Positions 6,143-63,979 of a stretch of 64,000 nt of DNA are shown piece after piece (the stretch's first letter is position 1; each line of letters begins with the position of its first letter). The position numbers were made by a program, and so were the translations under genes. The notes under the pieces are model-generated. The model was not told the DNA's origin, ran no database searches, and worked only from the letters and a program-made list of their open reading frames with translations. The DNA is from Verrucomicrobiota bacterium (GTDB lineage: Bacteria > Verrucomicrobiota > Verrucomicrobiia > Limisphaerales > UBA11358): positions 323 to 64,322 of the forward strand of contig JBEKOG010000028.1 of NCBI GenBank assembly GCA_049522015.1, read 5' to 3'.

Positions 6143-6985
6143 ATGCATCGTTTCTACCTGCCGCCCGAACGTTGCGCCGGCGCCGCCCTCCGTCTCGACG
6201 GACGCGAGGCGCATCACGCGCTGCATGTTTTGCGTTTGAAGCGCGGCGAACTCATCACCGTTTTGGACGGCGTCGGAAATGAATTTCTTTGTGCGGTCGA
6301 AACCAGTTCGCGCAATGCCGTCACGCTTTCCGTGTCGCTGAAAAATTTCACGCCACCCCTGCCCTGCTCCATCACGCTGCTGCAAGCCGTGCCCAAGGGG
6401 AAAATCATCGAAAGCATTATTCAAAAGGCCGTTGAACTTGGCGCGCGGCGCATCGTGCCGCTGCTGACCGAACGCGTGGTGACGCAACTCGACGAAGAAG
6501 ACGCCGCAGACAAGCGTAAGAAGTGGCAGCAAGTGGCGATTGAAGCCATCAAGCAGTGCGGCGCGGCGTGGCTGCCGCAAATTGAAGCGCCAACGACTAT
6601 CGAAAATTTTCTGGCATCTTATCGTAGCGGCGGTCGGCAGACCGCCGGACTTGTCGGGGAAAACGAAAAGTGCGGCTCTCTTCCGAAAGCCGCTACGCCG
6701 ACGCATTTTGAACTGGCATTGGTAGGTTCCCTCCAAAAGGAACGCCATCATCCACGTGAATGCTTGAGCGGGTTTCAGGCGAAGCACGGACGGTTACCGC
6801 AAAGTGTCGGCGTTTGGATTGGGCCGGAAGGCGATTTTACGCCTGAGGAACTGGAAGCGATCCAAGCGTCGGGCGCGCTGCCGATTTCACTTGGCCGTCT
6901 GGTTTTGCGCGTCGAGACCGCGGCGATTTACTGCCTCTCGATTTTGAATTACGAATTGAATTCCGTGGTGGAGTCCAAGCTCTAA
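6143..6985 (+). CDS. rsmE: 16S rRNA (uracil1498-N3)-methyltransferase RsmE, carrying an internal REP-doublet insertion
   Basis: MHRFYLPPE start, PKGxKxExIIQKAVELG, and the C-terminal GPEGDFTPEE...LG..VLRVETA motif. ATG at 6143. Confidence 0.9.
   Translation: MHRFYLPPERCAGAALRLDGREAHHALHVLRLKRGELITVLDGVGNEFLCAVETSSRNAVTLSVSLKNFTPPLPCSITLLQAVPKGKIIESIIQKAVELGARRIVPLLTERVVTQLDEEDAADKRKKWQQVAIEAIKQCGAAWLPQIEAPTTIENFLASYRSGGRQTAGLVGENEKCGSLPKAATPTHFELALVGSLQKERHHPRECLSGFQAKHGRLPQSVGVWIGPEGDFTPEELEAIQASGALPISLGRLVLRVETAAIYCLSILNYELNSVVESKL
6624..6696. repeat. Inverted pair of GTAGC-hairpin REP-like units inside the rsmE reading frame
   Basis: Plus-strand unit gtagcggcggtcggcagaccgcc (6624-6646). 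Minus-strand unit gtagcggctttcggaagagagccgc (reverse complement of ~6671-6696). The same unit type recurs at 53020-53087 and 55698-55727. Confidence 0.7.
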
Positions 6986-7066
6986 CTTGCCATCACAAAC
7001 CAGCTGAAGCCCGAACTTCAACTCCCACGCGTTAAACCAAGACCAGCGTTCCACCGATGGCGCGCC

Positions 7067-8317
7067 TTACCTTGATTGCACCAACACCCGGAAGGCGCGG
7101 CCCAGATGTTCCGGATGCGTGAGGGTTTGAAACTGGCGCGCCCGGGCGGGAGTCCATCCGTCTTCGCTTCCGCCTCCGTCAGACTTCGGCGAAACAAGTT
7201 CGCTAAAAGATTTTTCCCGCAAAGTCTTTTCCAAAATCCGCGTCAGGAATTGCGATTGCGTCGAAAAAATCTCCGTTCTCAATCCCACGGATTCGCCGGC
7301 GGACTGGATGACGGAAAAATTGACATGCGCGGTGAGGTCCTGTCCCCCGACGTTCGCCAAAAGGTCGTCGCTGACATGATGACGAAAATAAGCGCGCAGC
7401 GTCCCGCGCGGACGACTGGGTGAAAACAGTTCGTCGGCAGTTAAACCGTAATCAATCGTCATCAGTTTTCCACGTTCCAAAATGCCGGCAGCCTCACGCC
7501 ACCAGCTTTCGGCGGCAGGACAGGTTTCGATGGTGTAGCCGTCAGGCAAAACGGCCAAAAGCGAAGATGGAAGATGGAAGATGGAAGATGGGGAATTTTC
7601 AAACGTGCCCCTCGCCCCGGCCCCGTAAAGGGGCGTGGCCCCACGGGGCTTTACGCCCTCTCCCCCGCTCCGCGGGGCGAGGGTGTCAGGAATCCGTGCC
7701 CATACGAATTTTTCGCCGTCAACCGCCACGCCCCATTCGAACCACTTTTTGTTTTGAGCGTCCCACCCAAGCCGGTGGACTGGCATGGCGTCAAGGAGTT
7801 CGTTGCTGAAAATGACGCCGCGCAGCGGCGGGTGACAAGTGGCAGGTGACGAGTGGCACATTCGCTCCTGAAGCAGCGATTGAAAGCCGGCAAACCAGCG
7901 AACACGCGGTACGAACTCACGCAAAGTTTCACCCTGCCATTCCTGCCGGCGGGCTGAAGGCTCGATGATCCAGTATTCGATCTGGTCGAGCAGTTCCGGT
8001 CGGTTGGATTGCAACCAAGTCAGGATGTCCCTGGCCAGTTGGCCATCATGGGCGCCGGCCTCGACAATTTGGACTGTGGACCATGGACTATGGACTTGGT
8101 CCTCCAGCCATTCGGCGAATTGAAACGCGAGCAACTGGCCGAACAATTCACCGACGCCGACGCTGGTGTAAAAATCACCGTGCCGGCCGGGATTGTCTTT
8201 TTTCGTTTCATAATATCCATGAACAGGACAGTAGAGGGCGAGTTCCATGAAACGCGCAAATGACAAAACCCCGCGCTGGGCGGCTTCGCGGCGGATGATT
8301 TCAAACAGGTTGTTCAC
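7067..8317 (-). CDS. SAM-dependent methyltransferase, MidA/NDUFAF7 (DUF185) family, with internal repeat insertions
   Basis: N-terminal FMELALYCPVHGYY..., VEAGAHDGQLARDIL (SAM-binding region) and C-terminal DLTAHVNFS fit the DUF185 family. GTG start at 8317. Confidence 0.8.
   Translation of the reverse strand: MNNLFEIIRREAAQRGVLSFARFMELALYCPVHGYYETKKDNPGRHGDFYTSVGVGELFGQLLAFQFAEWLEDQVHSPWSTVQIVEAGAHDGQLARDILTWLQSNRPELLDQIEYWIIEPSARRQEWQGETLREFVPRVRWFAGFQSLLQERMCHSSPATCHPPLRGVIFSNELLDAMPVHRLGWDAQNKKWFEWGVAVDGEKFVWARIPDTLAPRSGGEGVKPRGATPLYGAGARGTFENSPSSIFHLPSSLLAVLPDGYTIETCPAAESWWREAAGILERGKLMTIDYGLTADELFSPSRPRGTLRAYFRHHVSDDLLANVGGQDLTAHVNFSVIQSAGESVGLRTEIFSTQSQFLTRILEKTLREKSFSELVSPKSDGGGSEDGWTPARARQFQTLTHPEHLGRAFRVLVQSR
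7563..7686. repeat. Composite repeat inside the midA-like gene: (GAAGATG)x4 plus a G/C-rich nested palindrome
   Basis: gaagatg x4 at 7563-7590. It is followed by cccctcgcccc...ggggcgaggg, which is related to the intergenic palindrome at 31546-31601. The GAAGATG/CCATCTTC motif recurs at 37940-37970. Confidence 0.7.
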
Positions 8318-21153: not shown

Positions 21154-21267
21154 CCTGGGAGCGCCGGCGTCCACCCCCCGCAGTGCTGCTACGGAGGACG
21201 GGTCTCGCCGGCAAATGGACAAGTCCGCCGCAGTGGTACGAGCCGGCGGGACGCCGGCGCTCCCAGG
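21154..21267. repeat. 114-nt palindromic element with perfect 19-bp terminal arms
   Basis: cctgggagcgccggcgtcc (21154-21172) is the exact reverse complement of ggacgccggcgctcccagg (21249-21267). A related 123-nt copy lies inside acnA (61431-61553). Confidence 0.85.
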
Positions 21268-21372
21268 ACACTGCGCTCCCAGCAAGAAACAAGCTGAAGC
21301 TGAAACTCCAACGCCAAACTGACGCCCCGTTTTTTATTCAACACTCAACCCTCAACTTTCAACACTCACCCC
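21241..21372 (+). repeat. Composite direct repeat, copy A (upstream of the ECF sigma gene)
   Basis: Shares agccggcgggacgccggcgctcccagga...caagctgaagctgaaactccaacgcc...ccccgttttttattcaacactcaaccctcaactttcaacactca with copy B at 23831-23937. Confidence 0.85.
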
Positions 21373-23815: not shown

Positions 23816-23830
23816 TACACTTAGACCAAG

Positions 23831-23937
23831 AGCCGGCGGGACGCCCGGCGCTCCCAGGAAAAATCAAGCTGAAGCTTGAACTCCAACGCCCCGTTTTTTA
23901 TTCGACACTCAACGCTCAACTCTCAACACTCAACGCC
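23831..23937 (+). repeat. Composite direct repeat, copy B (abuts the start codon of the PHP phosphatase gene)
   Basis: Same blocks as copy A at 21241-21372, with two short deletions. It ends at ...ctcaacactcaacgcc immediately before the ATG at 23938. Confidence 0.85.
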
Positions 23938-24756: not shown

Positions 24757-26889
24757 ATGCTCACGGCCAAACTGACAAAAAACCAGCTCACCGCCCTCAT
24801 CTGCCTGGCGCTTGCCCTGGTTACAACCGCGCTCTACTGGCCGATTACTCATCACGATTTTGTCAACTTCGATGACGACGATTACATTACCAACAATTCC
24901 CACGTTCAGGCCGGGCTGACCTGGGCCGGGGTGATCTGGGCTTTCCAAACCGGAGCCGCCGCCAACTGGCATCCGTTGACGTGGCTTTCGCACATGCTGG
25001 ATTGCCAGTTGTATGGTTTGAATCCCGGCGGCCATCACTCGACCAATCTGCTTTTTCACGCCGCCAACACTTTGCTGCTGTTCCTTTGGTTGAGGCAAAT
25101 CACCGGAGCCTTGTGGCGGAGCGCTTTCGTGGCGGCCTTGTTCGCCTGGCATCCCTTGCACGTCGAATCAGTGGCGTGGGCGGCTGAACGCAAGGATGTG
25201 TTGAGCGCGTTCTTCTGGATGTTGACATTGATGGCCTACACACGATATGTGACAAGTGACCAGCCTTCGCCACGCTTCGGCACGGCAGGCAAGTGGCGAG
25301 TGACACGAACCGCTTCCTTCTTGTCACGTGTCACATGTCACGTGTCACCTTATTACTGCCTCGCGCTTTTTTTCTTTGCCTGCGGACTGATGTCCAAGCC
25401 GATGGTGGTGACGCTGCCGTTTGTGCTGTTGCTGATTGATTTCTGGCCGCTGAACCGTTTCTCCAGTTTCCAGTTCCAAGTTTCCAGTTCTGAAAAACTC
25501 TCAACTCCGATAAATCGCGAGCAGGCCCTCGACCCTCAACTGCACCCCGAATGCCTTCGGGGCTCAACCAAATCAGCCTTCGGGCTGATTTGTGAGAAAC
25601 TGCCTTTCTTCGCGCTCACAGTGGCAGCCAGCGTTGTGACATATCTTGTGCAAACTTCGGGCCGGGCGCTTTGGTCGTCGGCTGAATTGCCCTTTTCTTC
25701 CCGTGTAGCAAACGCTTTGTGGGCCTACGAGCGTTACATCTCCAAAACATTTTGGCCGGCTGATCTCTCAATTTTTTATCCGCATCCGTATCATTGGCCG
25801 GCCGGTTTGGCGATTGGCGCGGCATTATTGCTGGCCCTGTGGTCGGGGTTGTCCATCTGGCGCGCGCGCCAAAATCCGTATTTGCTCGTTGGCTGGTTCT
25901 GGTTTTTGGGAACGCTCATCCCCACCATCGGCCTGGTGCAGGTCGGCTCGCAATCCATGGCCGACCGTTACATGTATATTCCCAGCGTCGGCCTGTTCAT
26001 TCTGGTGGTGTGGGGCTTAAACGATTTTTTGAACTGGCGTCCCCACTGGCGGCGAATTACGACGTTGGCCGGGGGCGTGGCGCTGGCGGGTTGTTTGGTG
26101 GGCACTGAAATTCAACTGAGTTACTGGCAGAACAGCATAAAACTCTTCCGACATGCCATTGAAGTGACAACCGATAATTTCGTCGCCTACACCTGCCTGG
26201 GCGAAACCCTCAGTGATTTGGGCCTGAAAAAGGAGGCCATGATGCTTTGTGCTGAAGCGGTGAAAATTTCGCCGAACAGCCCGGTGACACAATATAATTT
26301 CGGCATGGCTTTGTTGCAAAACGACAGGCGGGACGAAGCTCTGGCACATCTTGACGCTGCCGGGCGGCTGGCCCCTCACAATTCCGAGATTCAATACAAT
26401 CTTGGCCTGTTTTTGGTGCTGCACAACAAACCGGATGAAGCCACGGGTCATTTCACCGCCGCTCTCGTTGAAAGGCCGGAGTTCGCGGAGGCGCATTACC
26501 ACCTGGCGCAGGCTTTGTCCCAACAACACAAATCAAAGGAAACCATTTTTCATTACCGCGAGGCGTTGCGTCTCAAGCCGGACTTTGCTGACGCGCTCAA
26601 CGAACTTGCATGGATTCTCTCCACCGCTCCCGACTCCGGACTCCGCTCCGGCACGGAAGCCGTTCAACTGGCCAAACGCGCCTGTGAACTGACCCAAAAT
26701 CGGCAGGCGGCTTTTCTCACCACGCTCTCCGCCGCCTATGCGGAAACCGGCCGGTTCCCAGACGCCATTGCCACCGCGCAAATAGCCGGCAAACTTGCCC
26801 AAACCGCCGGGCAGAAGAAAATCGCCGCCCAAGACGGGGAATTGCTGAACCTGTATCAGGCGGGACATCCTTTTCGGGAAACGCATTGA
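24757..26889 (+). CDS. TMTC/PMT-like membrane glycosyltransferase fused to C-terminal TPR repeats (paralog 1)
   Basis: N-terminal FVNFDDDDYITNN, multiple TM helices, and a C-terminal TPR array (AHYHLAQAL..., FADALNELAWIL). Very similar to 26918..29110. Confidence 0.85.
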   Translation: MLTAKLTKNQLTALICLALALVTTALYWPITHHDFVNFDDDDYITNNSHVQAGLTWAGVIWAFQTGAAANWHPLTWLSHMLDCQLYGLNPGGHHSTNLLFHAANTLLLFLWLRQITGALWRSAFVAALFAWHPLHVESVAWAAERKDVLSAFFWMLTLMAYTRYVTSDQPSPRFGTAGKWRVTRTASFLSRVTCHVSPYYCLALFFFACGLMSKPMVVTLPFVLLLIDFWPLNRFSSFQFQVSSSEKLSTPINREQALDPQLHPECLRGSTKSAFGLICEKLPFFALTVAASVVTYLVQTSGRALWSSAELPFSSRVANALWAYERYISKTFWPADLSIFYPHPYHWPAGLAIGAALLLALWSGLSIWRARQNPYLLVGWFWFLGTLIPTIGLVQVGSQSMADRYMYIPSVGLFILVVWGLNDFLNWRPHWRRITTLAGGVALAGCLVGTEIQLSYWQNSIKLFRHAIEVTTDNFVAYTCLGETLSDLGLKKEAMMLCAEAVKISPNSPVTQYNFGMALLQNDRRDEALAHLDAAGRLAPHNSEIQYNLGLFLVLHNKPDEATGHFTAALVERPEFAEAHYHLAQALSQQHKSKETIFHYREALRLKPDFADALNELAWILSTAPDSGLRSGTEAVQLAKRACELTQNRQAAFLTTLSAAYAETGRFPDAIATAQIAGKLAQTAGQKKIAAQDGELLNLYQAGHPFRETH

Positions 26890-26917: not shown

Positions 26918-29110
26918 ATGTCCACAGCCAGACCAACAAGGAACCAGCTTTTTGCGGTTATCTGTCTCATGCTCGCCCTTGTGACATTGGTCGTATATTG
27001 GCCGATTACCCGCCACAACTTCACCAATTTCGATGACGACGGCTACATCACGGGAAATCCGCACGTCAATTCAGGGTTGAGTTGGCCGAACATCCTGTGG
27101 AGTTTCGAACACATTAACGCCGGTTATTGGATTCCGTTGACGTGGATCTCGCACATGGTGGACTGCCAACTGTATGGCTTGAACCCCGGCGGCCATCATT
27201 TGACGAATCTGCTCTTTCACCTCACCAATACTTTGCTGCTGTTCCTGCTGTTGAATGAACTGACCGGCGCCTTGTGGCGCAGCGCTTTCGTGGCGGCGTT
27301 GTTTGCCTGGCATCCGCTGCACGTCGAGTCGGTCGCTTGGGCCTGCGAGCGCAAGGATGTGTTGAGCGCATTTTTCTGGATGCTGACGTTGCTGGCGTAC
27401 GCGCGCTACGTGCGGTGCGTGACCAGTGGCACGTGTCAAGTGACACGAACGGACTCTGCTTCGTCACCCGTCACTCGCCACCCGTCACTTTACTACTTCC
27501 TCGCGCTGTTATTCTTCGCGTGCGGTTTGATGTCCAAGCCGATGGTGGTGACATTGCCATTCGTTTTGTTGCTGCTGGATTTCTGGCCGTTGGAGCGGTT
27601 CAGCGTTCAGCGTTCAGAGGTCAGCGTTCAAAATATGGCACGGTTAATTTTAGAAAAAATTCCGTTCTTCACTTTGGCGGCGGCAGGAAGCGGCGTCGCC
27701 TTTTTTACTCAAAAGGTGGGCGGCGCGGTTTCAGCCGACACATTTTCGCTTCGGCTGGCGAACGTGCTTTGGGCGTATGTGCGTTACATTTCCAAAATTT
27801 TTTGGCCGGTGGATTTGGCCGTCATTTATCCATTTCCGAGCCAGGGGCTTGTCGCTCTGGCCATTGTCGCGGCGCTGTTGCTGGCAATGTGTTCGGGCGC
27901 GTTTATTTTTATAGCGCGCCGCCGGCCTTATTTGTTGGCCGGCTGGTTTTGGTTTTTGGGAACGCTGGTGCCGGCCATCGGCATTGTCCAGGTGGGGTCG
28001 CAATCCATGGCCGACCGTTTTACTTATGTTCCAAGCATCGGGCTTTTTATCCTTGTCGTTTGGAGTGTGAATGACATTTTGATTTCGACTCCGCACAAAC
28101 AAAAAATCGCGGCGCTGCTTGGAACAGCCGCGCTGGTGGGTTGTCTCGCCATAACGTCAATTCAAATAAAATACTGGCGCAGCAGCATCACGCTTTTCCG
28201 CCACGCGCTCGCGGTGACAAGGGATAATTACATCGCCTGCGCCTGTCTCGGCCAGGCGTTGGATGCCATTGGCCAGGAGGATGAAGCTTTGACTCTTTGC
28301 ACCAACGCGGTGCGGATTAAGCCAAACTATCCACCCGGACAATTTTTTCTCGGCATGGTTTTGTTGAAGAAAGGCAAATCCGAGGAAGCGCTCAGTCACC
28401 TGAGCGCCGCGGCCCGGCTCGCGCCGTTTGACACAACGATGCACTATAATTTCGGCAAGGTTTTACTGGATTTCGACCGGCCGCAGGAAGCCGCCGCCTG
28501 TTTTATTACCACTCTCGACAACAACCCGGATTTTCCAGCGGCGCACAACGGTTTGGGGAAGGCTTATTGGAAGCAAGGCAAATTGGACCAGGCCACCAAC
28601 CAGCTTTCCCAGGCCGTGACGCTTGAACCTGACAATCCGCAATTTCATTATGATTTCGGGACCGTTTTGCTCGCAAACTCAAACGTGGACGAAGCCATCG
28701 CTCAATTTTCCGAAGCCTTGCGGCTGAAACCGGATTTTGCGGATGCGCACGGCAATCTGGCTGTAGCTTTCATCAGACAGGGCAGAGCCAGGGAGGCTCT
28801 CATCCATTTTTCCGAAGCGGTTCGACTGCAACCAAACGATCCAGATAGGCGCTTTAACCTTGGCCTCGCCCGGCTCGACAACCATCAGCCAGCCGAGGCC
28901 GCCTTCCAATTTTCCGAAGAACTCCGGCTCACGCCAAACGAAACCAAGGCGCACTACCGTCTCGCGCAGGCGCTGCAACAGCAAAACAAACTGGCCGGCG
29001 CCGTCGAGCATTACCGCGAAGCGCTGCGGCTCACACCGGAATTCCCCGAAGCAAAAGCCGCGCTCGACCAAATCCTTTCCACCAATCCGAATCTGAAAGC
29101 CGAACCTTGA
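26918..29110 (+). CDS. TMTC/PMT-like membrane glycosyltransferase fused to C-terminal TPR repeats (paralog 2)
   Basis: Collinear with paralog 1 (FTNFDDDGYITGN; LYGLNPGGHHLTNLLFH; LFAWHPLHVESVAW; GTLVPAIGIVQVGSQSMADRF). Longer TPR array. Confidence 0.85.
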   Translation: MSTARPTRNQLFAVICLMLALVTLVVYWPITRHNFTNFDDDGYITGNPHVNSGLSWPNILWSFEHINAGYWIPLTWISHMVDCQLYGLNPGGHHLTNLLFHLTNTLLLFLLLNELTGALWRSAFVAALFAWHPLHVESVAWACERKDVLSAFFWMLTLLAYARYVRCVTSGTCQVTRTDSASSPVTRHPSLYYFLALLFFACGLMSKPMVVTLPFVLLLLDFWPLERFSVQRSEVSVQNMARLILEKIPFFTLAAAGSGVAFFTQKVGGAVSADTFSLRLANVLWAYVRYISKIFWPVDLAVIYPFPSQGLVALAIVAALLLAMCSGAFIFIARRRPYLLAGWFWFLGTLVPAIGIVQVGSQSMADRFTYVPSIGLFILVVWSVNDILISTPHKQKIAALLGTAALVGCLAITSIQIKYWRSSITLFRHALAVTRDNYIACACLGQALDAIGQEDEALTLCTNAVRIKPNYPPGQFFLGMVLLKKGKSEEALSHLSAAARLAPFDTTMHYNFGKVLLDFDRPQEAAACFITTLDNNPDFPAAHNGLGKAYWKQGKLDQATNQLSQAVTLEPDNPQFHYDFGTVLLANSNVDEAIAQFSEALRLKPDFADAHGNLAVAFIRQGRAREALIHFSEAVRLQPNDPDRRFNLGLARLDNHQPAEAAFQFSEELRLTPNETKAHYRLAQALQQQNKLAGAVEHYREALRLTPEFPEAKAALDQILSTNPNLKAEP

Positions 29111-32995: not shown

Positions 32996-34171
32996 GTGAA
33001 ACCAAAAACGTTCATGCTCATCGCCGGTGAGGCGAGCGGGGATTTGCTCGCGGCGGAATTGGTTTCCGCGCTGCTTGCCGCGTTGAAGCGAAGCGAAGAC
33101 GGGCGCGTCCCGCAATTCTTCGGCGCGGGCGGTTCACGCATGGCAACGGCGGGAGTCGAGCTGGCCTTCGACCTGACGCAGCACTCGGTTATCGGCATTT
33201 CCGATGTGCTGATAAATTATTTCAAGTTCCGCCGGCTGTTCCATCAATTGCTGAAACTGGCGATTGAACGCAAACCGGACGCCATCATCGGCGTGGATTA
33301 CGGCGGGTTTAATCTGCGCTTCGGCCACGCCATCAAACAATACGTCCGCAAAAATCGATCGGCGTCCACGCCGTGGAATCCGAAAATCATTCAGTTCGTG
33401 TCGCCGCAGGTCTGGGCGTCGCGACCGGGCCGGGCGAATTTGCTCGCGGCGGATTACGATCTGCTCCTGAGCATTTTCCCGTTTGAAAAGGATTGGTATG
33501 CCAAGCGCGTGCCGAAGTTGCGCGTGGAATTTGTCGGGCATCCCATGGTGGATAGAAGTTCAAAGTCCAGAGTCCAGAGTCCAAAGTCTGAAAACGCAGC
33601 GCCAACAGTTTTGCTTTTGCCTGGCAGCCGCAAAAGCGAGTTGCAACGGCACCTGCCGCCAATGCTCGGCGCATTGAAACTGATTCAGGAAAAGTTGCCG
33701 TCGGTGAAAGCGAAAATGGTTTTGCCGGATGAAGCTTTAAAACAACTCGCGGACAAGCTGTTCACGCTCCCGTCAGATACGGAAATCCAAATTGGCAATC
33801 TGCCGCAGGCGCTCGCACAGGCGGACGTTGCCATCGCCTCAACCGGCACGGTGACGGTGGAATGCGCGTTCTTCGGCGTGCCGACGGTGACGCTCTACAA
33901 AACGTCGTGGCTTACCTACCAGATTGCCAAACGCATCGTCACGGTGAAATCGCTGACGATGCCGAACTTGCTGGCGAACGAGGAGGTTTTTCCCGAATTC
34001 ATCCAGGGTGCCGCCACGCCTGACCATATTGCCAGAGCCGCGCTGGAGCTTTTGCAAAACGAACCGCGCCGGATTCAAATTAAAAAGCGGCTGGCGGAAA
34101 TCATTTCTTCCCTGGGCGGACCCGGCGCGACCACGCGAGCGGCAACGGCGATTTTGAGTTTGTTTCAATAA
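32996..34171 (+). CDS. lpxB: Lipid-A-disaccharide synthase
   Basis: IAGEASGDLLAAELV, DYGGFNLR, LLPGSR.SEL. GTG at 32996 (alternative ATG at 33014). Confidence 0.9.
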   Translation: MKPKTFMLIAGEASGDLLAAELVSALLAALKRSEDGRVPQFFGAGGSRMATAGVELAFDLTQHSVIGISDVLINYFKFRRLFHQLLKLAIERKPDAIIGVDYGGFNLRFGHAIKQYVRKNRSASTPWNPKIIQFVSPQVWASRPGRANLLAADYDLLLSIFPFEKDWYAKRVPKLRVEFVGHPMVDRSSKSRVQSPKSENAAPTVLLLPGSRKSELQRHLPPMLGALKLIQEKLPSVKAKMVLPDEALKQLADKLFTLPSDTEIQIGNLPQALAQADVAIASTGTVTVECAFFGVPTVTLYKTSWLTYQIAKRIVTVKSLTMPNLLANEEVFPEFIQGAATPDHIARAALELLQNEPRRIQIKKRLAEIISSLGGPGATTRAATAILSLFQ

Positions 34172-36724: not shown

Positions 36725-37216
36725 ATGAACATTACCGTCGCCAACCGTCAGCACGTGCGAAAAATCAACCTGCGGCTGCTGAAAAAAATTGCGAACGCGC
36801 TACTGGCGGAACTGGAGATTGAAAAGGCCGAAATTGGAATCTGCCTCGTCGGCGCGCCGGAAATGACGCGACTCAACGAGACTTTTCTCCGGCATGCCGG
36901 TTCAACGGACGTGATTACGTTTGATTACCGTGACAGCGTGTTGCCGGCATCTTGCCGGCAAATCAAATCAGAACTTCCGGCAGGATGCCGGAAGCACGTT
37001 CACGGCGAGATTTTCATCTGCGTGGACGAGGCGGTTTTGCAGGCGCGGAAGTTTGACACGAGCTGGCAGTCGGAAATCGTCTGCTACATCATCCACGGAG
37101 TTTTGCATTTGGTCGGCTTTGATGATTCGAGTGCGGGTGCCCGGCGCAAAATGAAACGGGAGGAAAACCGCCGGTTGCGTGAAATCACCCGCCGCTTTCC
37201 CTTGAGCAAACTTTGA
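36725..37216 (+). CDS. ybeY: rRNA maturation endoribonuclease YbeY, with an in-frame 66-nt palindromic insertion
   Basis: Zinc motif HGVLHLVGFDD. phoH-ybeY synteny. Confidence 0.92.
   Translation: MNITVANRQHVRKINLRLLKKIANALLAELEIEKAEIGICLVGAPEMTRLNETFLRHAGSTDVITFDYRDSVLPASCRQIKSELPAGCRKHVHGEIFICVDEAVLQARKFDTSWQSEIVCYIIHGVLHLVGFDDSSAGARRKMKREENRRLREITRRFPLSKL
36935..37000. repeat. 66-nt palindromic element (26+14+26), copy inside ybeY
   Basis: agcgtgttgccggcatcttgccggca / aatcaaatcagaac / ttccggcaggatgccggaagcacgtt. A second copy lies at 52123-52188 in proS. Confidence 0.85.
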
Positions 37217-51082: not shown

Positions 51083-52912
51083 TCAGCGCAAACTTGCCTG
51101 GCCTTCTTCCAGCAGTTTCACCACCGCTTCTACTGCCACATCGGCCTTGACGGGTTGCAGCGCGCCGCCGCGCGGTTTGAGTTCCACTTCGCCCTTCGCT
51201 AATGATTTTTCACCAATGCCGATGCGAATTGGAAAGCCGACCAGTTCGGAATCCTTGAATTTCACGCCGGGACGTTCGTCGCGGTCGTCCAGAATCACTT
51301 CCACGCCGCGCGCCGTGAGTTCCGCGTAAATTTTCTCCGCCAGTTTCATCACCGCGCCGTCCGGCGCGACTCCCAGCGGCGTGATGCAAACCTGATACGG
51401 CGCGACACTTAACGGCCAGATGATGCCGTCCTTGTCGTTGCACTGCTCGATGACGGCCTGCAACGTGCGGGTGACGCCGATGCCGTAGCAGCCCATGACG
51501 GCGGGTTTGCGGGTGCCAGCCTCGTCGAGGAAGGTCGCGCCGAGCTTCTCGCTGTATTTCGTGCCGAGCTTGAAAACGTGGCCGACTTCAATCGCCCGCC
51601 GGATTTTTAACGGTTTGTTGCATTTCGCGCAGGGTTCACCGGCGGTCACAGTCCGCAAATCGAACCACTGTGTTACCTTGATGTCGCGTTCGATGGAGAC
51701 GTTGCGGAAATGGAAACCGTCTTCGTTCGCGCCGGTGGTCATGCCGTTCGCGCCGTGCAGACGTTCATCGGCGAAAATCCTCGGAGCGCCGGCCTCCGGC
51801 ACGGCGCGTTGCAGCGGTTCACCTTCAAGCCGTGCCGGAGGCCGGCGCTCCAATGTGCTTGCCACCGCGCCCAAGCTTCCCGGATGCGCGCCGAGCGTGG
51901 CCACACATTCTTCCGGCGTGGCCGGACGGAACACCGTGGTGCCGATGATGCCCGCGAGCTTGGCTTCGTTCAACTGGTCGTCGCCGCGTATCAAGATGAT
52001 GACCGGTTTGCTGTCAGCCATGTAAACCAGCGTCTTGATCTGACGATTGGCCGGAACGTTGTAGGGCGCTTTGCTCAGCGCTTCGATGGTGACAACGCCG
52101 GGCGTGGCGAACTTTTCAATGGAACGTGCTGCCGGCGTCCCGCCGGCAGTTCCAGTTTGTTCTTCCGGCAAGATGCCGGAAGCACGTTGAGAAACCGCGC
52201 TTGTCGCCTTCTCGATGTTCGCGGCGTAACCGCAGGCTTCGCAATATACCACCTCGTTCTCGCCGGTTTCCGCCGGGACCATGAACTCGTGCGAAAATTT
52301 CCCGCCGATGACGCCGGTGTCGGCCTCAACCGGAAACGCCTTCAGCCCGCACCGGGCAAAGATGCGCCCATAGGCGTCGTACATTTTCTGGTAGCACGCC
52401 TGCGCCGCCTCGTCGCTCACGTCAAAACTGTAGGCGTCCTTCATGATGAACTCGCGGGCGCGCATCAGCCCGAAGCGCGGACGGATTTCGTCCCGGAACT
52501 TCACGCTGATCTGGTAAAAGTTCTTCGGCAACTGCCGGTAGGAATTGATCTCGGCGGCGGCGGTGGTGGTGATGACTTCCTCGGCCGTCGGGCTGAGAAT
52601 CCATTCGCGGTTTCCACTGTCCTTCAATTTGAACAACACGTTACCGGCGGTTTCGTAACGGCCGCTCTGCTGCCAGATTTCCGGCGGCTGAAGCGCGGGC
52701 ATGAGCAGTTCGAGCGCACCGGCGCGGTCCATTTCCTCGCGGACGATTTGCTCGACCTTGCGCAGCGCGCGCAAACCGAGCGGTAGAAAGGTATAGACGC
52801 CCCCGGCGAGCTTGCGGATGAGGCCGGCACGGAGCAGGAGTTTATGGGAAAGAATTTCCGCGTCAGCCGGAGCTTCGCGGAGTGTAGGAATAAATGCGTT
52901 GGTCCACTTCAT
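51083..52912 (-). CDS. proS: Proline--tRNA ligase (bacterial type with editing domain), carrying two in-frame palindromic insertions
   Basis: MKWTNAFIPTLREAPADAEILSHKLLLRAGLIRKL, class II motifs (FRDEIRPRFGLMRAREF, GCYGIGVTR), and a C-terminal anticodon-binding domain. Confidence 0.95.
   Translation of the reverse strand: MKWTNAFIPTLREAPADAEILSHKLLLRAGLIRKLAGGVYTFLPLGLRALRKVEQIVREEMDRAGALELLMPALQPPEIWQQSGRYETAGNVLFKLKDSGNREWILSPTAEEVITTTAAAEINSYRQLPKNFYQISVKFRDEIRPRFGLMRAREFIMKDAYSFDVSDEAAQACYQKMYDAYGRIFARCGLKAFPVEADTGVIGGKFSHEFMVPAETGENEVVYCEACGYAANIEKATSAVSQRASGILPEEQTGTAGGTPAARSIEKFATPGVVTIEALSKAPYNVPANRQIKTLVYMADSKPVIILIRGDDQLNEAKLAGIIGTTVFRPATPEECVATLGAHPGSLGAVASTLERRPPARLEGEPLQRAVPEAGAPRIFADERLHGANGMTTGANEDGFHFRNVSIERDIKVTQWFDLRTVTAGEPCAKCNKPLKIRRAIEVGHVFKLGTKYSEKLGATFLDEAGTRKPAVMGCYGIGVTRTLQAVIEQCNDKDGIIWPLSVAPYQVCITPLGVAPDGAVMKLAEKIYAELTARGVEVILDDRDERPGVKFKDSELVGFPIRIGIGEKSLAKGEVELKPRGGALQPVKADVAVEAVVKLLEEGQASLR
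51783..51851. repeat. 69-nt palindromic element (23+23+23), copy inside proS
   Basis: ggagcgccggcctccggcacggc / gcgttgcagcggttcaccttcaa / gccgtgccggaggccggcgctcc. The arms are perfect reverse complements. Confidence 0.9.
52123..52188. repeat. 66-nt palindromic element, copy inside proS
   Basis: aacgtgctgccggcgtcccgccggca / gttccagtttgttc / ttccggcaagatgccggaagcacgtt. Same family as 36935-37000. Confidence 0.85.
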
Positions 52913-52974
52913 GTGGCGGGGAATTTAACAACACAGTGGCAAAGGAACGAGGAATTTTATTTTGCGGCGGAGCG

Positions 52975-58096: not shown

Positions 58097-60664
58097 ATGA
58101 GTGACACCACTTTTTCAACCAGAATTTCGGCGATGAAAATTCCGTCGCTGCCGCCCGGGGTCACGCTCACCACGCTCGAAAACGGGCTGGTCATCATCGT
58201 GCGCGAAGATCACAGCGCGCCGGTCGTGTCAGCGCAGGCGTGGTGCATGGCGGGCAGCATTCACGAAGGCAAATGGCTCGGCGCCGGCCTGTCGCACGTG
58301 CTCGAACACATGCTGTTCAAGGGCACAATCACCCGTCCCGGCAGCCGCATTGACCAGGAAGTGCAGGAAGCCGGCGGCTACATGAACGCCTACACAAGCT
58401 TCGACCGCACGGTGTATCACATTGACGTGCCGGCCACCGGCACGCGCACGGCGATTGATGTCCTGTGCGACATCATGCAGCACGCCACCCTGCCCGACGA
58501 TGAACTGGCCAGGGAACTCGACGTCATCCGCCGCGAAATGGACATGGGCCAGGACGATCCCGGGCGCCGCGCCAGCCGCCGCCTGTTTGAAACCGCCTAC
58601 ACGCGCAGTCCGTATCGCTTCACCGTCATCGGGTACCCCGACATTTTCGGCGAGTTGAAACCCGACGACATCCGCGGTTACTACGCCGAAAAATACGCGC
58701 CGAACAATGTGTTTTACGTCGTCGCCGGCGACGTCAAGAAAGACGAAGTCATCGCGCAAATCCGCACCGCCTACGAAAAAACCAAAGCCCGGGCGCTCCC
58801 ATCAGTCGTGTTGCCAGAAGAACCGAAACAGACCGCGGCGCGTGAAATCGTCGAGGAAGCGCCCATTGAACTTGGTCATTTTCATTTTGCCTGGCACATT
58901 CCCGAAGTGCGGCATCCCGACATGCCGGCGCTCGACGTGCTCGCCGTTTTGCTGGGGTGCGGCCGCAGTTCGCGCCTCTACCAGCAGGTCCGCGAGAAGA
59001 AGGGCGTTGTGCACCACGTTGACGCGTGGACTTACAGCCCCGGCAATCCGGGTTTGTTCGGCATGAGCGCCATCGTGGACGCGGACAAATTTACCGTTGC
59101 GCGTGATGCGATGCTGGCCGAGGTTGAAAAAATGAAGACGTCGCCGGTTACCGCCGGTGAACTTGGCAAAGCGGTGAAACAATTCATTGCCGCCACGCTT
59201 GCCGCGCGCAAGACGATGGAAGGCCAGGCGCAAAACCTCGGCGGAAACTGGCTGGCGGCAAATGATTTGAATTTTTCCGAACGTTACCTCGCCGCCGTCA
59301 AGCGCGTCAGGCCCGATGACATCCTGCGCGTCGCGCGTGAATATCTCACGGCGGAAAACCGCACCCTTTACACGTTGTTGCCCAATGGCACCGCGCCCAA
59401 AGTGTCCGTGGCCGTCGAAGAAAAAACCGAGCACGCGATCCAGAAATTTGAATTGCCGAACGGCCTCCGCCTGCTCGTGAAGGAAGATCATCGCCTGCCC
59501 TTTGTTGAATATCGCGCCATGTTCCAGGGCGGCGTGCTCGCCGAAACCAGGGAAAACAACGGCATCAGCCAGTTGACCAGCCGGATGCTGCTCAAAGGCA
59601 CGTCGCAGCGCAGCGCCCGGGACATTGCGACAGAAATCGAGACCGTCGGCGGCAGCATAGACAGCTACGGCGGCAATAACAGCTTCGGCGTTAATCTGGA
59701 AACCATGAGCAGCGATTTTGCGACCGGCCTCGATTTGCTCGCCGACGTTTTGCTGAACCCGGTTTTTCCCGCCGACGCGCTCGAACGCGAGCGCGAGGTG
59801 CAGATTGCCGACATTTGTGCAGACAAGGACAATCTGCTTAAAAGCGCCAGCCTGGCCATGCGACGCACGCTTTTTGGCAACATCGGCTACGGCTTGGATT
59901 CAACCGGCATGGAAGAAACCGTTGCCAAACTTAAGGTTGCCAGTTTGAAATCGTTTCACAAAAAGCTGGCCACGCCGAACAATTGCGTTCTCGCCATTTA
60001 CGGCGACGTGGATGCGGCGGAGGTTAAATCCGCCGTCGAAACAGTTTTTGGCGGATGGAAATCCAGCGGAAAATTTGAACATCCAACATCCAACATCCAA
60101 CATCCAACATCCAATCGAGTAACGGAGATCCGCGACAAAAAGCAGGCGGTGGTCGTCATCGGTTTTCCCGGCACGACGATGCACGACGAAGACCGTTACG
60201 CGCTCGAGATGATTCAAGAATCGTGCAGCGACCTCGGTTCGCGGCTGTTTCTGCGGATTCGCGAGCAACTCGGCCTCGCCTACTACGTCGGCGCGCAACA
60301 TTTCGCCGGACTGGTGCCCGGCTACTTCGCCTTTTATGCCGGCACCGAGCCGTCGAAGGCCGCGCAGGTCGAACAGGAAATTCTCAAGGAAGCCGGACTC
60401 CTGCGCACCGAAGGCCTGACCGCCGAGGAACTCAAACGCGCCAAGGCCAAACTCATCGGCCAGAAAAAGATCGCGCGGCAGGACCTGGGTCATCTGGCCT
60501 CCACGACCACGCTCGATGAACTTTACGGCCTCGGCTACCGGCGTGCGGAACTCGACGACGCGAAATACGAGGCCGTGACGCTGGAACAAATCAAAGCCGC
60601 CGCGCAAAAATATCTCAAGCCGGATAAACTGGTCGTCGCGGTGGTGAAGCCGGAGAAAATTTAA
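58097..60664 (+). CDS. Two-module M16 (pitrilysin/insulinase) family zinc peptidase
   Basis: HxxEH motif (HVLEHMLFKGT) in the first module. The second, inactive-type M16 module starts around residue 440. Confidence 0.92.
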   Translation: MSDTTFSTRISAMKIPSLPPGVTLTTLENGLVIIVREDHSAPVVSAQAWCMAGSIHEGKWLGAGLSHVLEHMLFKGTITRPGSRIDQEVQEAGGYMNAYTSFDRTVYHIDVPATGTRTAIDVLCDIMQHATLPDDELARELDVIRREMDMGQDDPGRRASRRLFETAYTRSPYRFTVIGYPDIFGELKPDDIRGYYAEKYAPNNVFYVVAGDVKKDEVIAQIRTAYEKTKARALPSVVLPEEPKQTAAREIVEEAPIELGHFHFAWHIPEVRHPDMPALDVLAVLLGCGRSSRLYQQVREKKGVVHHVDAWTYSPGNPGLFGMSAIVDADKFTVARDAMLAEVEKMKTSPVTAGELGKAVKQFIAATLAARKTMEGQAQNLGGNWLAANDLNFSERYLAAVKRVRPDDILRVAREYLTAENRTLYTLLPNGTAPKVSVAVEEKTEHAIQKFELPNGLRLLVKEDHRLPFVEYRAMFQGGVLAETRENNGISQLTSRMLLKGTSQRSARDIATEIETVGGSIDSYGGNNSFGVNLETMSSDFATGLDLLADVLLNPVFPADALEREREVQIADICADKDNLLKSASLAMRRTLFGNIGYGLDSTGMEETVAKLKVASLKSFHKKLATPNNCVLAIYGDVDAAEVKSAVETVFGGWKSSGKFEHPTSNIQHPTSNRVTEIRDKKQAVVVIGFPGTTMHDEDRYALEMIQESCSDLGSRLFLRIREQLGLAYYVGAQHFAGLVPGYFAFYAGTEPSKAAQVEQEILKEAGLLRTEGLTAEELKRAKAKLIGQKKIARQDLGHLASTTTLDELYGLGYRRAELDDAKYEAVTLEQIKAAAQKYLKPDKLVVAVVKPEKI
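60078..60114 (+). repeat. Heptanucleotide tandem repeat (ACATCCA)x5 inside the M16 peptidase gene
   Basis: gaacatccaacatccaacatccaacatccaacatccaat, translated as EHPTSNIQHPTSN. Confidence 0.9.
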
Positions 60665-60666
60665 TT

Positions 60667-60735
60667 GGAGCGCCGGCCTCCGGCACGGCTCTTCCTGTTG
60701 TTTCATTGTCGCGCTGTGCTGGAAGCCGGCGTTCC
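60667..60735. repeat. 69-nt palindromic element, intergenic copy 1
   Basis: ggagcgccggcctccggcacggc / 23-nt loop / gctgtgctggaagccggcgttcc. The arm differences are transitions. Confidence 0.85.
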
Positions 60736-60909
60736 AGCTGGAATCAAATAACCGCTGGAACTCATCTCGAAATCTTGCGCTGCTGAATGACCACACCTCC
60801 GATATTCGGCTGAGTTTTGCTTTGATCGGGTTGTTTTCAATATAACGAACCGCCTTCCTTTCCTGCTCTTCGTCCCGCATGAATGTATCCCAGTATTCCC
60901 GCTGCCATT
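60736..60909 (-). pseudogene. C-terminal remnant of an IS200/IS605-type Y1 transposase (RAYT-like)
   Basis: The minus-strand frame reads LQWQREYWDTFMRDEEQERKAVRYIENNPIKAKLSRISEVWSFSSARF. This matches the conserved C-terminal pattern of REP-associated tyrosine transposases (WQ.RYYDH.IRDE...YI..NPVKAGL....WPWSS). No N-terminal HUH/Tyr core is present, and an in-frame stop lies just upstream inside the adjacent repeat. Confidence 0.65.
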
Positions 60910-60976
60910 GGAGCGCCGGCCTCCGGCACGGCTTGTTTCAGCTATAACATCGGGCCGTGCCGGAGGCCGGCGTTCC
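60910..60976. repeat. 67-nt copy of the 69-nt palindromic family, intergenic copy 2
   Basis: ggagcgccggcctccggcacggc / ttgtttcagctataacatcgg / gccgtgccggaggccggcgttcc. Confidence 0.85.
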
Positions 60977-60979
60977 GAT

Positions 60980-63979
60980 TTATGCCTTTGCCACCAACTG
61001 CCGCAGGACGTACGGCAAAATGCCGCCGTGCTGGTAGTAATCGATTTCAATCGGCGTATCAATCCGGCAACGCACTGGCACATCTTCCACGCCGCCGTCT
61101 TTGCGCGTGATCTTCAGCGTGAGGTCCTGCTGCGGCTTGAGGTTCGCATCGAGGCCGACGATGTCGTAGGTCTCCGTGCCATCGAGCTGGAGGCTCTGCG
61201 CCGTCGTGCCTTCCTTGAATTGCAGCGGCAGCACGCCCATGCCGACAAGGTTGCTGCGGTGGATGCGTTCGAAGCTCTGCGCCACGACGGCTTTCACGCC
61301 GAGCAGGTTCGTGCCTTTCGCGGCCCAGTCACGGGATGACCCGGTGCCGTATTCCTGGCCGGCAATCACCACCAGCGGAACGCCGGCCGCCCGATATTTC
61401 ATGGCGGCGTCGTAAATGGACATTTGTTCTCCTGGGAGCGCGGGCGTCCCGCCTGCGGCAGTCGGCGTCGCGCCGGCTGCACTCGTTGAACTGACTGACG
61501 AAGCGGAAGGCGAGACGCCTTCCGCAGCACGCGAGGACGCGTGCGCTCCCAAAAACCTGGTCACTCCGCCTTCGACACCAGGCACCATGAGATTTTTGAT
61601 GCGGACGTTGGCGAACGTGCCGCGGGTCATCACGCGGTCATTGCCTCGCCGCGAGCCGTAGCTGTTGAAGTCGGCGGGCTGAACGCCGTTCTCAATGAGA
61701 TATTTTCCGGCCAGCGAGGTCTTCTGGATGGATCCGGCGGGTGAAATGTGGTCGGTCGTCACGCTGTCACCAAAAATGGCCAGCGTCCGCGCACCCTTGA
61801 TTTCGGCGATGCCGCCGGGTTGCATGGAGAAGTTCGCGAAGAACGGCGGTTCCTGTATGTAAGTGGACCTGCGTTCCCATACGAAAACATTGCCGGTGAA
61901 CGAGGGGATTTCGTTCCACTTGGGATTCTGCGCCGCAAAATCCTTGAACAGCCTGCGATAAACTTCCGGCTGCAACGCGGTTTGCATGAGGTCGCGGATT
62001 TCCTGCAGGCTGGGCCAGAGTTCGCGCAAATAAACCGGCCGGCCATGCTTGCCCATGCCAATCGGATCGCGGCTGAGGTCAATGTCCACGCGGCCCGCGA
62101 GCGCGAAGGCGACGACGAGTGGTGGCGACATGAGGAAGTTCGCCTTGATGCTCTGATGCACGCGCGCCTCGAAGTTGCGGTTGCCCGAAAGGACGGAGGC
62201 CGCGACCAGGTCGTATTTGCTGATCGCGTCTTCGACCGTGGCCGGCAGGGGGCCGGAGTTGCCGATGCATGTCGTGCAGCCGTAACCCACGAGGTTGAAG
62301 CCAAGCTGGTCGAGATACAATTGCAGGCCGGTCCGGTCCAGGTAATCGCTCACCACGCGCGAGCCGGGCGCGAGCGACGTCTTGACGACGGGATTCACGC
62401 TGAGTCCGTGTTCCACGGCCTTCTTCGCCAGCAAACCGGCGGCGAGCATGACGCTGGGATTCGATGTGTTCGTGCAACTGGTGATGGCCGCGATGAGCAC
62501 GCTGCCGTGGCGAATTTCGGACTGCACCCCGCGAAACGTCGTGGGAGGCACCTGCTCCGAGGTGTGGGGCGCGGGGTGCTGGTCGCGCATCTCGGATTCG
62601 CTGGGTTCCACGCCCAGCTTGCGATGGCCATAGCTGTGATTGATGGGCGGATGGGCCTCGCGCGCCGTGTTGACCCGCGCGGTTACATACAACTCCTCGT
62701 AACGCTTGCCGAAGCCATTGTCCATGACCGAACGCGTCATCGCCTTCATGAACGCGTCTCTCAACTTCGGCAGTTCGATGCGGTCCTGCGGGCGCTTTGG
62801 GCCGGCCACACTCGGCACCACCGTGCCAAGGTTGAGTTCCAATTCCTGCGAGTAGGCGATGTCGCCCTTCTTCGGAATGCCGAACAAGCCCTGCGCGCGG
62901 TAATAATTTTCGTAGGTCAGGCAAAGCTCCTCGCTGCGGCCCGTGGCGCGGAGATAATTCACGCACTCGGCATCAATCGGGAAGAAACCCATCGTCGCGC
63001 CGTATTCGGGCGCCATGTTCGCTATCGTCGCGCGGTCCACGACCGGCAACGCCGCCGCGCCGGGGCCGAAAAATTCGACGAACTTGCCGACGACCTTTGC
63101 CTTGCGGAGCATTTCCGTGACGGTGAGCGCGAGGTCGGTGGCGGTGACGCCGTCGCGCAACACGCCGGTGAGATGCACGCCGACGACGTCCGGCGTGAGG
63201 AAATAAACCGGCTGGCCCAGCATGCCGGCTTCAGCCTCGATACCGCCGACACCCCACCCCACGATGCCGAGACCATTGATCATTGTCGTGTGCGAATCCG
63301 TGCCGACCAGCGTGTCGGGATAGTAAAGTGGAACGCCGGCCTCCGGCACGGCGCGTTGAGCGTCTTCACCATCTTGCCGTGCTGGAAGCCGGCGCTCCGA
63401 AAGCACGCCTTGGGCAAGATATTCCAGGTTGACCTGATGGACGATGCCGATGCCGGGCGGCACGACCTTGAACGTGTCGAACGCCTGCATGCCCCACTTG
63501 AGAAACTGGTAGCGCTCGCGATTGCGCCGGAATTCCATCTCCAGATTTTTCTGCAACGCATCCGCGCTGCCGGCAAAATCCACCTGCACCGAATGGTCCA
63601 CCACGAGGTCCACCGGCACGAGCGGTTCGATGATTTTCGGATTTTTGCCCAGTCGCTGAACCGCGGAGCGCATCGCCGCCAGGTCCACCAGCAGCGGCAC
63701 GCCGGTAAAATCCTGCAATACGATGCGCGCAACGATAAATGGAATTTCCTCCGTGCGGGTTTCGGTTGGCTTCCAATTCGCCAGCGCGCGCACGCTTTGT
63801 TCGCCGACCTTTTTGCCGTCGCAATTGCGGAGCACGGATTCGAGCACGAGCCGGATGGAGACGGGCAATTGGGAAACCGGCCCGACCCCGGCCTCTTCCA
63901 GCGCCGGCAGGGAATAAAACGATCCCTGCCGGCCGTCGCCGAGGTCAAATTTCTGGAGCGTGTTGAATAAGTTGTGCAT
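60980..63979 (-). CDS. acnA: Aconitate hydratase A (AcnA/IRP type), carrying two in-frame palindromic insertions
   Basis: 999 aa. [31 protein letters not shown] (Fe-S ligands), and the C-terminal swivel domain [14 protein letters not shown]...[10 protein letters not shown]. Confidence 0.96.
61431..61553. repeat. 123-nt palindromic element inside acnA (same family as 21154-21267)
   Basis: cctgggagcgcgggcgtcc (61431-61449) versus ggacgcgtgcgctcccaaa (61535-61553). Encodes [41 protein letters not shown] between VTRFL and QMSIYDAAM. Confidence 0.8.
63330..63398. repeat. 69-nt palindromic element, copy inside acnA
   Basis: ggaacgccggcctccggcacggc / gcgttgagcgtcttcaccatctt / gccgtgctggaagccggcgctcc. 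Encodes [23 protein letters not shown]. Confidence 0.9.

Follow-up and report, generated by a model that had tools for sequence, protein, structure and literature searches.

REP-type palindromes and heptamer arrays within conserved genes of a Limisphaerales bacterium

RESULTS

Nine genes of the window contain repeat segments

The window analyzed here, a stretch of 64,000 nt (contig JBEKOG010000028.1 of assembly GCA_049522015.1, positions 323 to 64,322), comes from a member of the order Limisphaerales (Verrucomicrobiota) and has a G+C content of about 57%. Within its conserved genes lie short segments of two kinds, inverted doublets resembling repetitive extragenic palindromic (REP) sequences and tandem arrays of 7-nt units. 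An initial annotation, made from the letters alone, had listed 14 such segments, and an open reading frame (ORF) check places 14 of 14 at the listed positions, all within long open ORFs, which bears out both the coordinates and the openness of the host frames. The host identities hold as well: rsmE, lpxB, ybeY, proS, acnA and the gene for a two-domain M16 peptidase are named by NCBIfam, the midA-like gene matches Pfam Methyltransf_28, and the two TMTC-like genes carry TPR arrays. "At least ten" conserved genes had been claimed; only nine named genes carry segments, or about nine of the roughly 50 genes in the window.

The window was compared with loci L001-L193, the pooled sequence amounting to 1.69 Mb, and searches for further copies covered 1.6 Mb of related DNA. 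Orthologues comprised 120 AcnA and 120 YbeY proteins, three acnA loci, and 80 metagenome loci syntenic with lpxB, which also hold ybeY, proS, M16 and TMTC genes. Segments were folded as single-stranded DNA, with z scores from 200 shuffles. The 14 segments are listed below, with the strand where one is assigned.

6624..6696, rsmE insert: GTAGC-stem-loop ... stem-loop-GCTAC, a tail-to-tail doublet; residues 173-197; z -5.35; absent from the L111 orthologue
7563..7686, minus strand, midA-like gene, insert a: (GAAGATG)4, then small GC-rich hairpins; L111 orthologue about 23 residues shorter; unit found in 5 loci
7831..7859, minus strand, midA-like gene, site b: 7/14-nt tandem repeat GGTGACAAGTGGCA; L111 orthologue without 12 residues; no hairpin
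25259..25359, plus strand, TMTC-like paralogue 1, site a: TGTCACG heptamer repeats in a loop common to paralogue 2; no significant hairpin
25462..25592, plus strand, TMTC-like paralogue 1, site b: (TCCAGTT)4, then two small perfect hairpins; gene-specific 44-residue insert; z -4.5
27417..27489, plus strand, TMTC-like paralogue 2, site a: CGTCACC heptamers; homologous to 25288-25359
27599..27630, plus strand, TMTC-like paralogue 2, site b: (GTTCAGC)4.7 heptamer array
33554..33595, plus strand, lpxB linker: (AGTCCAG) heptamer array; many different fillers in 80 orthologues
36935..37000, ybeY insert: family B doublet, residues 71-92, z -6.9
51783..51851, proS insert, site a: family A doublet, 24 residues by its predicted translation, z -9.1
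52123..52188, proS insert, site b: family B doublet, z -7.05
60078..60114, plus strand, M16 peptidase gene: (AACATCC)5.3 array in place of a variable linker; unit in 8 loci, including proS site b of L168
61431..61553, acnA insert of 123 nt: four stem-loops; residues ~809-850; z -7.1; terminal 23 nt in 5 loci
63330..63398, acnA insert: family A REP heterodimer, 24 residues by its predicted translation, z -4.8

Half of the segments (rsmE, site b of TMTC-like paralogue 1, ybeY, both in proS and both in acnA) form strong hairpins, with z from -4.5 to -9.1 and 0 of 200 shuffles folding as well. No significant hairpin was found against 200 shuffles at midA-like site b, at site a of either TMTC-like paralogue, at site b of paralogue 2, in lpxB or in the M16 gene; these six segments are tandem heptamers or 14-mers, or of low complexity. 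Insert a of the midA-like gene mixes a heptamer array with small hairpins and has a z of only -2.15. The initial description of the segments as palindromic elements thus holds for seven of the 14, about half of the sites being heptamer arrays. A generic hairpin count was barely above Markov-shuffled controls (116 in the window against 67-92; 23 against 13-19 for stems of at least 11 pairs) and was therefore replaced by a folding-energy scan and family-based searches. The unbiased sliding-window scan of folding energy recovers the same hairpin sites, two intergenic copies of family A and a few further places. Rfam gave no match in the window at gathering thresholds.

Three palindromic families recur in unrelated places

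Family A has four copies of 69-70 nt in the window, at 51783 (proS), 63330 (acnA), and 60667 and 60910 (both in the spacer between the M16 gene and acnA). Family B (66 nt) has two, at 36935 in ybeY and 52123 in proS, and family D ends are seen at 61431-61553, 21155-21268 and 23825-23859. The related DNA has further, non-orthologous copies of family B, of the family D ends and of both the (AACATCC) and the (GAAGATG) array. Second copies of the rsmE segment and of site b in either TMTC-like paralogue are absent from the window and from the 1.6 Mb of related DNA, where the lpxB segment matches orthologous sites only. The claim that each segment recurs elsewhere is therefore sound for families A, B and D and for some heptamer units, and fails for these four. 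Intergenic features of families A and D, a GTAG-type doublet and a remnant of a REP-associated tyrosine transposase (RAYT) gene are as follows.

6061..6132: GTAG-type REP doublet of the GTAGGAGACG type, between a dnaJ-like gene and rsmE; 2 matches against 0 expected; z -2.6
21155..21268: family D palindrome, intergenic, GGGAGCGCCGGCGTCCCGCC head, z -5.2
23825..23859: single family D REP unit, intergenic
60667..60735: family A doublet, intergenic, 3 nt past the end of the M16 ORF (60664), z -4.2
60736..60907, minus strand: RAYT remnant, C-terminal 57 residues, WQREYWDTFMRDEEQERKAVRYIENNP...; match to NF047646, E 5.8e-10
60910..60979: family A doublet, intergenic, abutting the acnA stop codon, z -9.5

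In a copy of family A, two conserved 23-nt arms that mirror each other, with the head TY-GGAGCGCC and a short stem-loop, enclose a variable spacer of about 23 nt. Each arm has its own internal stem of 5-7 bp (there are 8 arms in the window), and the arm variants GGCCTCCGGCAC, GGCTTCCAGCAC, GAGCACCGGCTC and GAACTCCGATTC preserve it. The spacer differs between copies, with other palindromes sometimes nested inside, and the palindrome is lengthened by two conserved flanking bases (T, then C or T). Fold z scores run from -4.2 to -9.5 in family A and are -6.9 and -7.05 in family B. Judged by its sequence, this anatomy is that of a tail-to-tail REP dimer, or REPIN (REP doublet forming a hairpin). 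The arm pattern GGARCGCCGGCYTCCRGCACGGC matched more than 110 stretches of genome DNA, nearly all from metagenome-assembled genomes (MAGs) of Limisphaerales, Pedosphaera or Verrucomicrobiia. Copies measure 64-75 nt (mode 71) and are distributed 30, 20 and 32 over the three classes modulo 3, so that there is no bias toward multiples of three; lengths divisible by three, which the initial annotation had read as a property of the families, are not a family trait.

Family B has an AACGTG/CACGTT closing stem around two 9-bp stem-loops with 3-nt loops, and the two stem-loops differ by compensatory changes. The composite in acnA consists of an outer family D pair around two 10-bp stem-loops. Families A and D have the REP head (T)(Y)GGAGCGCC, and family B has AACGTG. 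A GTAG head is found in the window only in the rsmE insert (GTAGC...GCTAC) and in the 6061-6132 doublet; the rsmE insert is, on its sequence, a canonical, textbook GTAG-tagged REP doublet. Strongly folding GC-rich palindromes of the form CCCTCTCCCCGC...GCGGGGAGAGGG, seen near 31561-31588 (31521-31630) and in the midA-like insert (7609-7683), may be a further REP-like family.

The segments lie at indels whose filling varies

Comparison with solved structures places extra residues at ~194-217 and ~798-847 in AcnA (against IRP1), near 242-264 and 351-389 in ProRS, and at 71-92 in YbeY. Orthologues differ in length at every segment position. Indeed, each segment sits at an indel relative to solved homologues or to orthologues, which upholds the earlier proposal of lineage-specific indels. 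Some orthologues have little or no sequence at both acnA sites (e.g., KGVLNAGGVYYPD and GGVTKFQPGGEQMSIY), and short or empty forms also occur at proS site a, in rsmE and at both midA-like sites. At proS site b, in the M16 gene and in lpxB, the repeat instead takes the place of a native linker of similar length, with no net addition. Site a occupies homologous positions in the two TMTC-like genes, which are tandem paralogues of 80% identity, and may therefore represent a single event.

What fills a site changes among close relatives. At AcnA site 1 the family A peptide is present in 17 of 120 orthologues, spread over the identity range; in the others the site either is empty or encodes a different palindrome-derived peptide or one of several peptides derived from heptamers. 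About 54 of the 120 have nothing at AcnA site 2, and six or more kinds of filler are found there in the remainder. Among 120 YbeY orthologues (at least 69% identity) the loop is never empty, and eight or more unrelated fillers occur in it; likewise, many different fillers occupy the lpxB linker in 80 orthologues, none of them empty. At proS site b, filled by family B in the window, the linker is plain (GIPKTAARE...) in more distant relatives, and an array of five CCGAAAT, AGAAGTC or CAACATC units takes its place in closer ones. Orthologous doublets at proS site a carry differing variants on both arms, and their spacers are weakly similar (p ~0.02 for two pairs, the others not significant); the arms may have been converted in place, or the element re-inserted at the same site. 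Taken together, these alignments mark each site as a hotspot whose filling varies among close orthologues.

Structure models located one insert. For YbeY, a model built from 45 orthologues (predicted local distance difference test [pLDDT] score 85.6, predicted template modeling [TM] score 0.83) has a core that superposes on crystal structures (TM score 0.85 to 1OZ9). The 22-residue insert, from a predicted translation that includes ...FDYRDSVLPASCR..., falls between the strands at 63-67 and 91-99, and pLDDT drops below 50 over residues 77-87; the model thus supports a tolerated loop insertion in an otherwise intact fold. The AcnA AlphaFold model (47 close orthologues, mean pLDDT 52.7) is uninformative on loop location, so that mapping onto structures, as the initial annotation had suggested, gave a loop for YbeY and nothing usable for AcnA. 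A third stretch of AcnA, residues ~415-482 (62516-62620), has no IRP1 counterpart and includes a strongly folding part (-44 kcal/mol in an 80-nt window); all 47 aligned orthologues conserve the stretch, which may therefore be an old fixed insert.

The inserts are found again in independent assemblies. A relative of 92% identity shares the 123-nt acnA insert, and one AcnA cluster has 45 member sequences; L145 has an lpxB of 100% identity, L125 and L130 share the ybeY insert, and L113, L120 and L168 share the proS element. This recurrence at the same positions excludes assembly chimeras, the refutation that the initial annotation had foreseen.

Family A is not depleted from genes

Copies were called intragenic from ORF continuity and a codon score, a test that found the correct frame in 140 of 158 held-out windows of 70 codons. 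Of 86 classifiable copies of family A, 41 are intragenic by this test, and random positions in the same loci give 227 of 445 (51%), so that the sample shows no depletion from genes. Their hosts include genes that, from recognized motifs, we take to encode UvrB, a polyketide synthase, an HrpB-like helicase, a P-type ATPase (two copies), MnmE and an AddA/UvrD-like helicase. The P-type ATPase ORF, in L065, is host to two doublets of family A, to a heptamer peptide of the (AATATCC) type and to the stretch GTGVPPVRSEAAAHGRDARAT.

Depending on the host, the arm reads as ERRPPAR, GAPASGTA or SAGLRHG, that is, in all three frames, which points to a nucleic acid entity rather than a peptide module. The frame is kept through 41 copies, whereas at most 12 copies have same-strand coding flanks but no continuous frame; this balance argues for translation and against removal from the transcript. 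Intron- or intein-like removal was accordingly rejected as an explanation, no splicing signatures having been seen in the copies examined.

A Y1 transposase gene downstream of acnA is flanked by family A

A regular-expression search for RAYT N-terminal motifs had found nothing, and the gene came to light in a search for ORFs bracketed by family A arms. Such ORFs, with arms on both sides, are present in L013 and L113. They match Pfam Y1_Tnp (25.7 bits, gathering score 23), the NCBIfam model for REP-associated tyrosine transposases, NF047646 (E 2e-15), and PDB 4ER8, E. coli TnpA-REP (E 4e-5), the last in an alignment that covers both the HUH motif and the YIxxNP segment. We take the YIxxNP segment of TnpA-REP to be the site of the catalytic Tyr. 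A motif scan found the RAYT gene in L064 and L089 as well. All four copies lie directly downstream of acnA on the same strand, in genomes that span 70-91% AcnA identity. Moreover, family A has a doublet inside the full-length genes themselves, immediately ahead of the YIxxNP segment; it is in frame in L013, L064 and L089 and shifts the frame in L113.

In the window, a remnant occupies the corresponding position. The intergenic family A copies there are 174 nt apart, and the DNA between them encodes, on the acnA strand, WQREYWDTFMRDEEQERKAVRYIENNPIKAKL...; this product corresponds to the C-terminal end of the transposase (NF047646 model positions 105-146 of 146), aligning with the YIxxNP segment; the N-terminal two thirds, including the HUH motif, are deleted. 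The remnant would be explained by a deletion between the upstream flanking copy of family A and the internal one. Overlooked in the initial annotation, it is the strongest clue to mechanism. From the flanking and synteny in relatives, together with the window remnant, family A is likely the cognate repeat of the RAYT-type Y1 (HUH) transposase downstream of acnA.

Many relatives (L125, 2400-3450; L121, L130 and L161) have, at the 5' end of lpxB, a Y1 transposase gene of a second type, which encodes ~208 residues. It is framed by GTAGGAGACG-type REPs, and a duplicate of the initial ~40 nt of lpxB is found on either side of it. This gene is missing from the window, where the same REP family is present as the 6061-6132 doublet upstream of rsmE.

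Heptamer arrays are abundant

Tandem arrays of at least three copies in the 1.69 Mb are dominated by period 7 (255 arrays, against 63 of period 6 and 40 of period 8). Their units are very diverse, typically in about four copies, and by the same ORF and codon-score test 86 of 248, about a third, are intragenic. Examples in the window start at the following positions.

7563, 8070, 19147, 19208, 21338, 23908, 25322, 25462, 27462, 27598, 31471, 33564, 37942 and 60078: heptamer arrays

The array at 8070-8096, (TGGACTA)3.9, lies in the midA-like ORF and is an addition to the segments listed initially.

Other repeats and folding sites in the window

Further 80-nt windows more than 3 standard deviations below the window mean in folding energy lie in or beside ORFs at 5106-5190, 5586-5680, 22121-22200 and 52961-53045. 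An ORF of 573 residues (53748-55469, minus strand) has an internal tandem repeat of 312 nt at 54139-55172, with 69-nt sub-repeats, in about three copies of 74% identity; it encodes a repeat protein unrelated to the palindromes. Several long direct repeats are accounted for by ordinary paralogous duplications: 15255-15500 with 16593-16850 (the C-terminal part of a 1423-residue ORF and the next ORF), 24757-26889 with 26918-29110 (the two TMTC-like genes), and 8754-9073 with 9870-10189 (adjacent ORFs with a GPTGSGKST-type motif, a T2SSE ATPase pair in L111).

DISCUSSION

Origin of the inserts

The phenomenon is real and dense in the window, and it is a further case of something already known, not something new in kind. 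We consider it probable that this genome and its relatives hold REP-type inverted doublets (REPIN-like) alongside heptamer arrays, and that the doublets are mobilized by RAYTs, insert regardless of coding sequence and are kept in tolerant loops. The doublets would be mobilized, now or formerly, as single-stranded hairpins by RAYT-type transposases; landing without regard to coding sequence, they would survive within genes only where the 20-40 added residues sit in a tolerant loop or linker and the frame stays intact. Such a filter by loop and frame would produce the in-frame, multiple-of-three appearance as a selection effect. A loop that once held repetitive or hairpin DNA would remain unstable, with families, heptamer arrays and deletions substituting for each other at one site across related lineages. 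The inserts themselves would be translated as disordered loops and be passengers at the DNA level rather than selected peptide modules. The earlier suggestion of mobile hairpins tolerated in surface loops accordingly survives in part: dispersed hairpin families at indels and the YbeY loop model agree with it, for about half of the sites.

Several findings weigh against this account. No transposition event and no filled and empty pair with clean boundaries was recovered among the orthologues, the nearest "empty" ones differing by replacement; with no clean empty site for comparison, the family A flank profiles show no target-site duplication or insertion motif beyond the two conserved bases. 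The family A head is GGAG, versus the GTAG typical of RAYT-associated REPs, and the match of the L013 and L113 ORFs to NF047646 (56.9 bits) falls under its curated cutoff of 80. No transposase was found linked to families B or D. With the RAYT copy in the window truncated, this genome may be unable to mobilize family A. That the inserts are translated is deduced from their open frames, and the six heptamer-array sites may have arisen by slippage in place instead of by insertion.

Slippage could be extended to all of the segments, as hypervariable linkers made in place during replication (heptamer arrays and local palindromes) with nothing imported. Six of the 14 sites, tandem heptamers or low-complexity sequence without a hairpin, fit this reading; period-7 arrays are very common in the pooled DNA, proS site b has five-unit arrays of related but different units in three lineages, and the segments of rsmE and of site b in both TMTC-like paralogues have no other copy in the data. 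As a general explanation we nevertheless find it unlikely, because families A, B and D recur non-orthologously, in unrelated genes and in intergenic DNA of many genomes, family A flanks a transposase gene, and the rsmE insert has the canonical GTAG REP-doublet form. Alternatively, the hairpins could be retained for a benefit to the host, such as translation pausing at domain boundaries, transcript stability, or sites for gyrase or nucleoid proteins, with occupancy itself selected. The ybeY and lpxB sites are indeed filled in every close orthologue (120/120 and 80/80), with unrelated fillers, arm variants preserve their stems, and REP roles in mRNA stability and translation have been reported (PMC12306157, PMC3733652). 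Yet relatives with otherwise conserved proteins have empty forms at both acnA sites, proS site a, rsmE and midA, and heptamer arrays without hairpins interchange with hairpins at the same sites, which makes a host function improbable as the cause. Repeats from metagenome-type data may be misassembled, and chimeric joins or binning errors could in principle mimic insertion; given inserts at the same positions in independent assemblies (the 45-member AcnA cluster, the 92% relative, L145, L125, L130, L113, L120 and L168), open frames, and flanks colinear with orthologues, we regard the chance of such an artifact as negligible.

Mobilization followed by filtering leaves room for a more speculative addition, which we hold to be possible though rather doubtful: specific loops of YbeY, LpxB, ProRS and AcnA would be permanent landing pads, where the resident repeat attracts the next element or is rewritten by a RAYT-dependent or hairpin-repair process. 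Fillers would then be exchanged at an exact codon position faster than the protein diverges, giving targeted, self-renewing diversification of a loop rather than random insertion filtered by selection, and elements would be as common in genes as outside them, even in the gene for their own transposase.

With these observations the Rickettsia type of phenomenon, selfish palindromes presumably translated as part of housekeeping proteins, reaches Verrucomicrobiota that live free in soil and peat, at a density as high or higher. Unlike the Rickettsia elements, one family here is tied to a candidate mobilizing enzyme. A family without coding depletion calls into question the extragenic picture of REPs and REPINs, and the inserts offer a natural catalog of insertion-tolerant loops in essential enzymes. 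At a practical level, they affect annotation, alignment and phylogeny of these abundant uncultured bacteria.

Comparison with known repeat systems

Cyanobacterial genomes have short tandemly repeated repetitive (STRR) sequences, many dispersed families of tandem 7-nt repeats with period 7 dominant. Relative to these, the heptamer arrays described here differ in lineage and unit sequence, and about a third of them lie in coding sequence. As to miniature inverted-repeat transposable elements, the only gene found flanked by family A encodes a Y1 transposase, no systematic search for a parent DDE-type insertion sequence having been made. Our literature search found no paper on Limisphaerales repeats.

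The initial annotation knew of no comparable description outside Rickettsia, but one exists: Di Nocera et al. (2013, BMC Genomics, PMC3733652) report GTAG and CGTC REPs and REP dimers inside genes, the dimers encoding 20-30 residues. Intragenic REPs were most numerous in Opitutus terrae (Verrucomicrobia), which is mentioned 70 times in their Additional file 3; some genes were hit twice, and hosts included DNA repair genes and, in other species, tRNA synthetase genes, most REPs being called intergenic. The elements in the window and its relatives are likewise short GC-rich stem-loops in head-to-head or tail-to-tail dimers, tail-to-tail with variable spacers; dimers within ORFs encode 20-30 residues, double hits occur, repair helicases, UvrB-type proteins and tRNA synthetases are among the hosts, and Y1 (RAYT) transposase genes are flanked by repeats. 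The O. terrae GTAG-19 peptides GTGVPPV and HGRHARAT resemble the L065 P-type ATPase stretch, which suggests REP families common to verrucomicrobial classes. In contrast to that study, the order here is Limisphaerales, families A and D are headed by GGAGCGCC rather than GTAG or CGTC, about half of the sampled family A copies are intragenic, and a family A doublet lies in frame within the RAYT gene; that study does not describe hotspots that stay fixed while their fillers change.

The REPIN-RAYT system (Bertels and Rainey 2011, PMC3116915) also joins two inverted REPs and a spacer into a long hairpin, with a Y1 transposase flanked by its own REPs at a conserved chromosomal position, here downstream of acnA. 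However, REPs and REPINs are described as extragenic (PMC12306157), which the elements here are not; moreover, their spacer is not conserved between copies, and the RAYT in the window is a remnant.

For Rickettsia palindromic elements (RPEs; Ogata et al. 2000, as related in PMC10969869 and PMC3733652), which are the classical example, RPE-1 is given as ~150 bp, with a conserved peptide. By those accounts the likeness lies in palindromic repeats in frame in many unrelated housekeeping genes, presumably tolerated in loops. The elements here are shorter (64-75 nt, the composite 123 nt), use all three arm frames without a single conserved peptide, and have a candidate transposase identified; they come from a different phylum and lifestyle, so that the resemblance is by analogy only. 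What goes beyond the initial finding is the RAYT link of one family, with its remnant in the window, the lack of coding avoidance across an order, and fixed hotspots with changing fillers.

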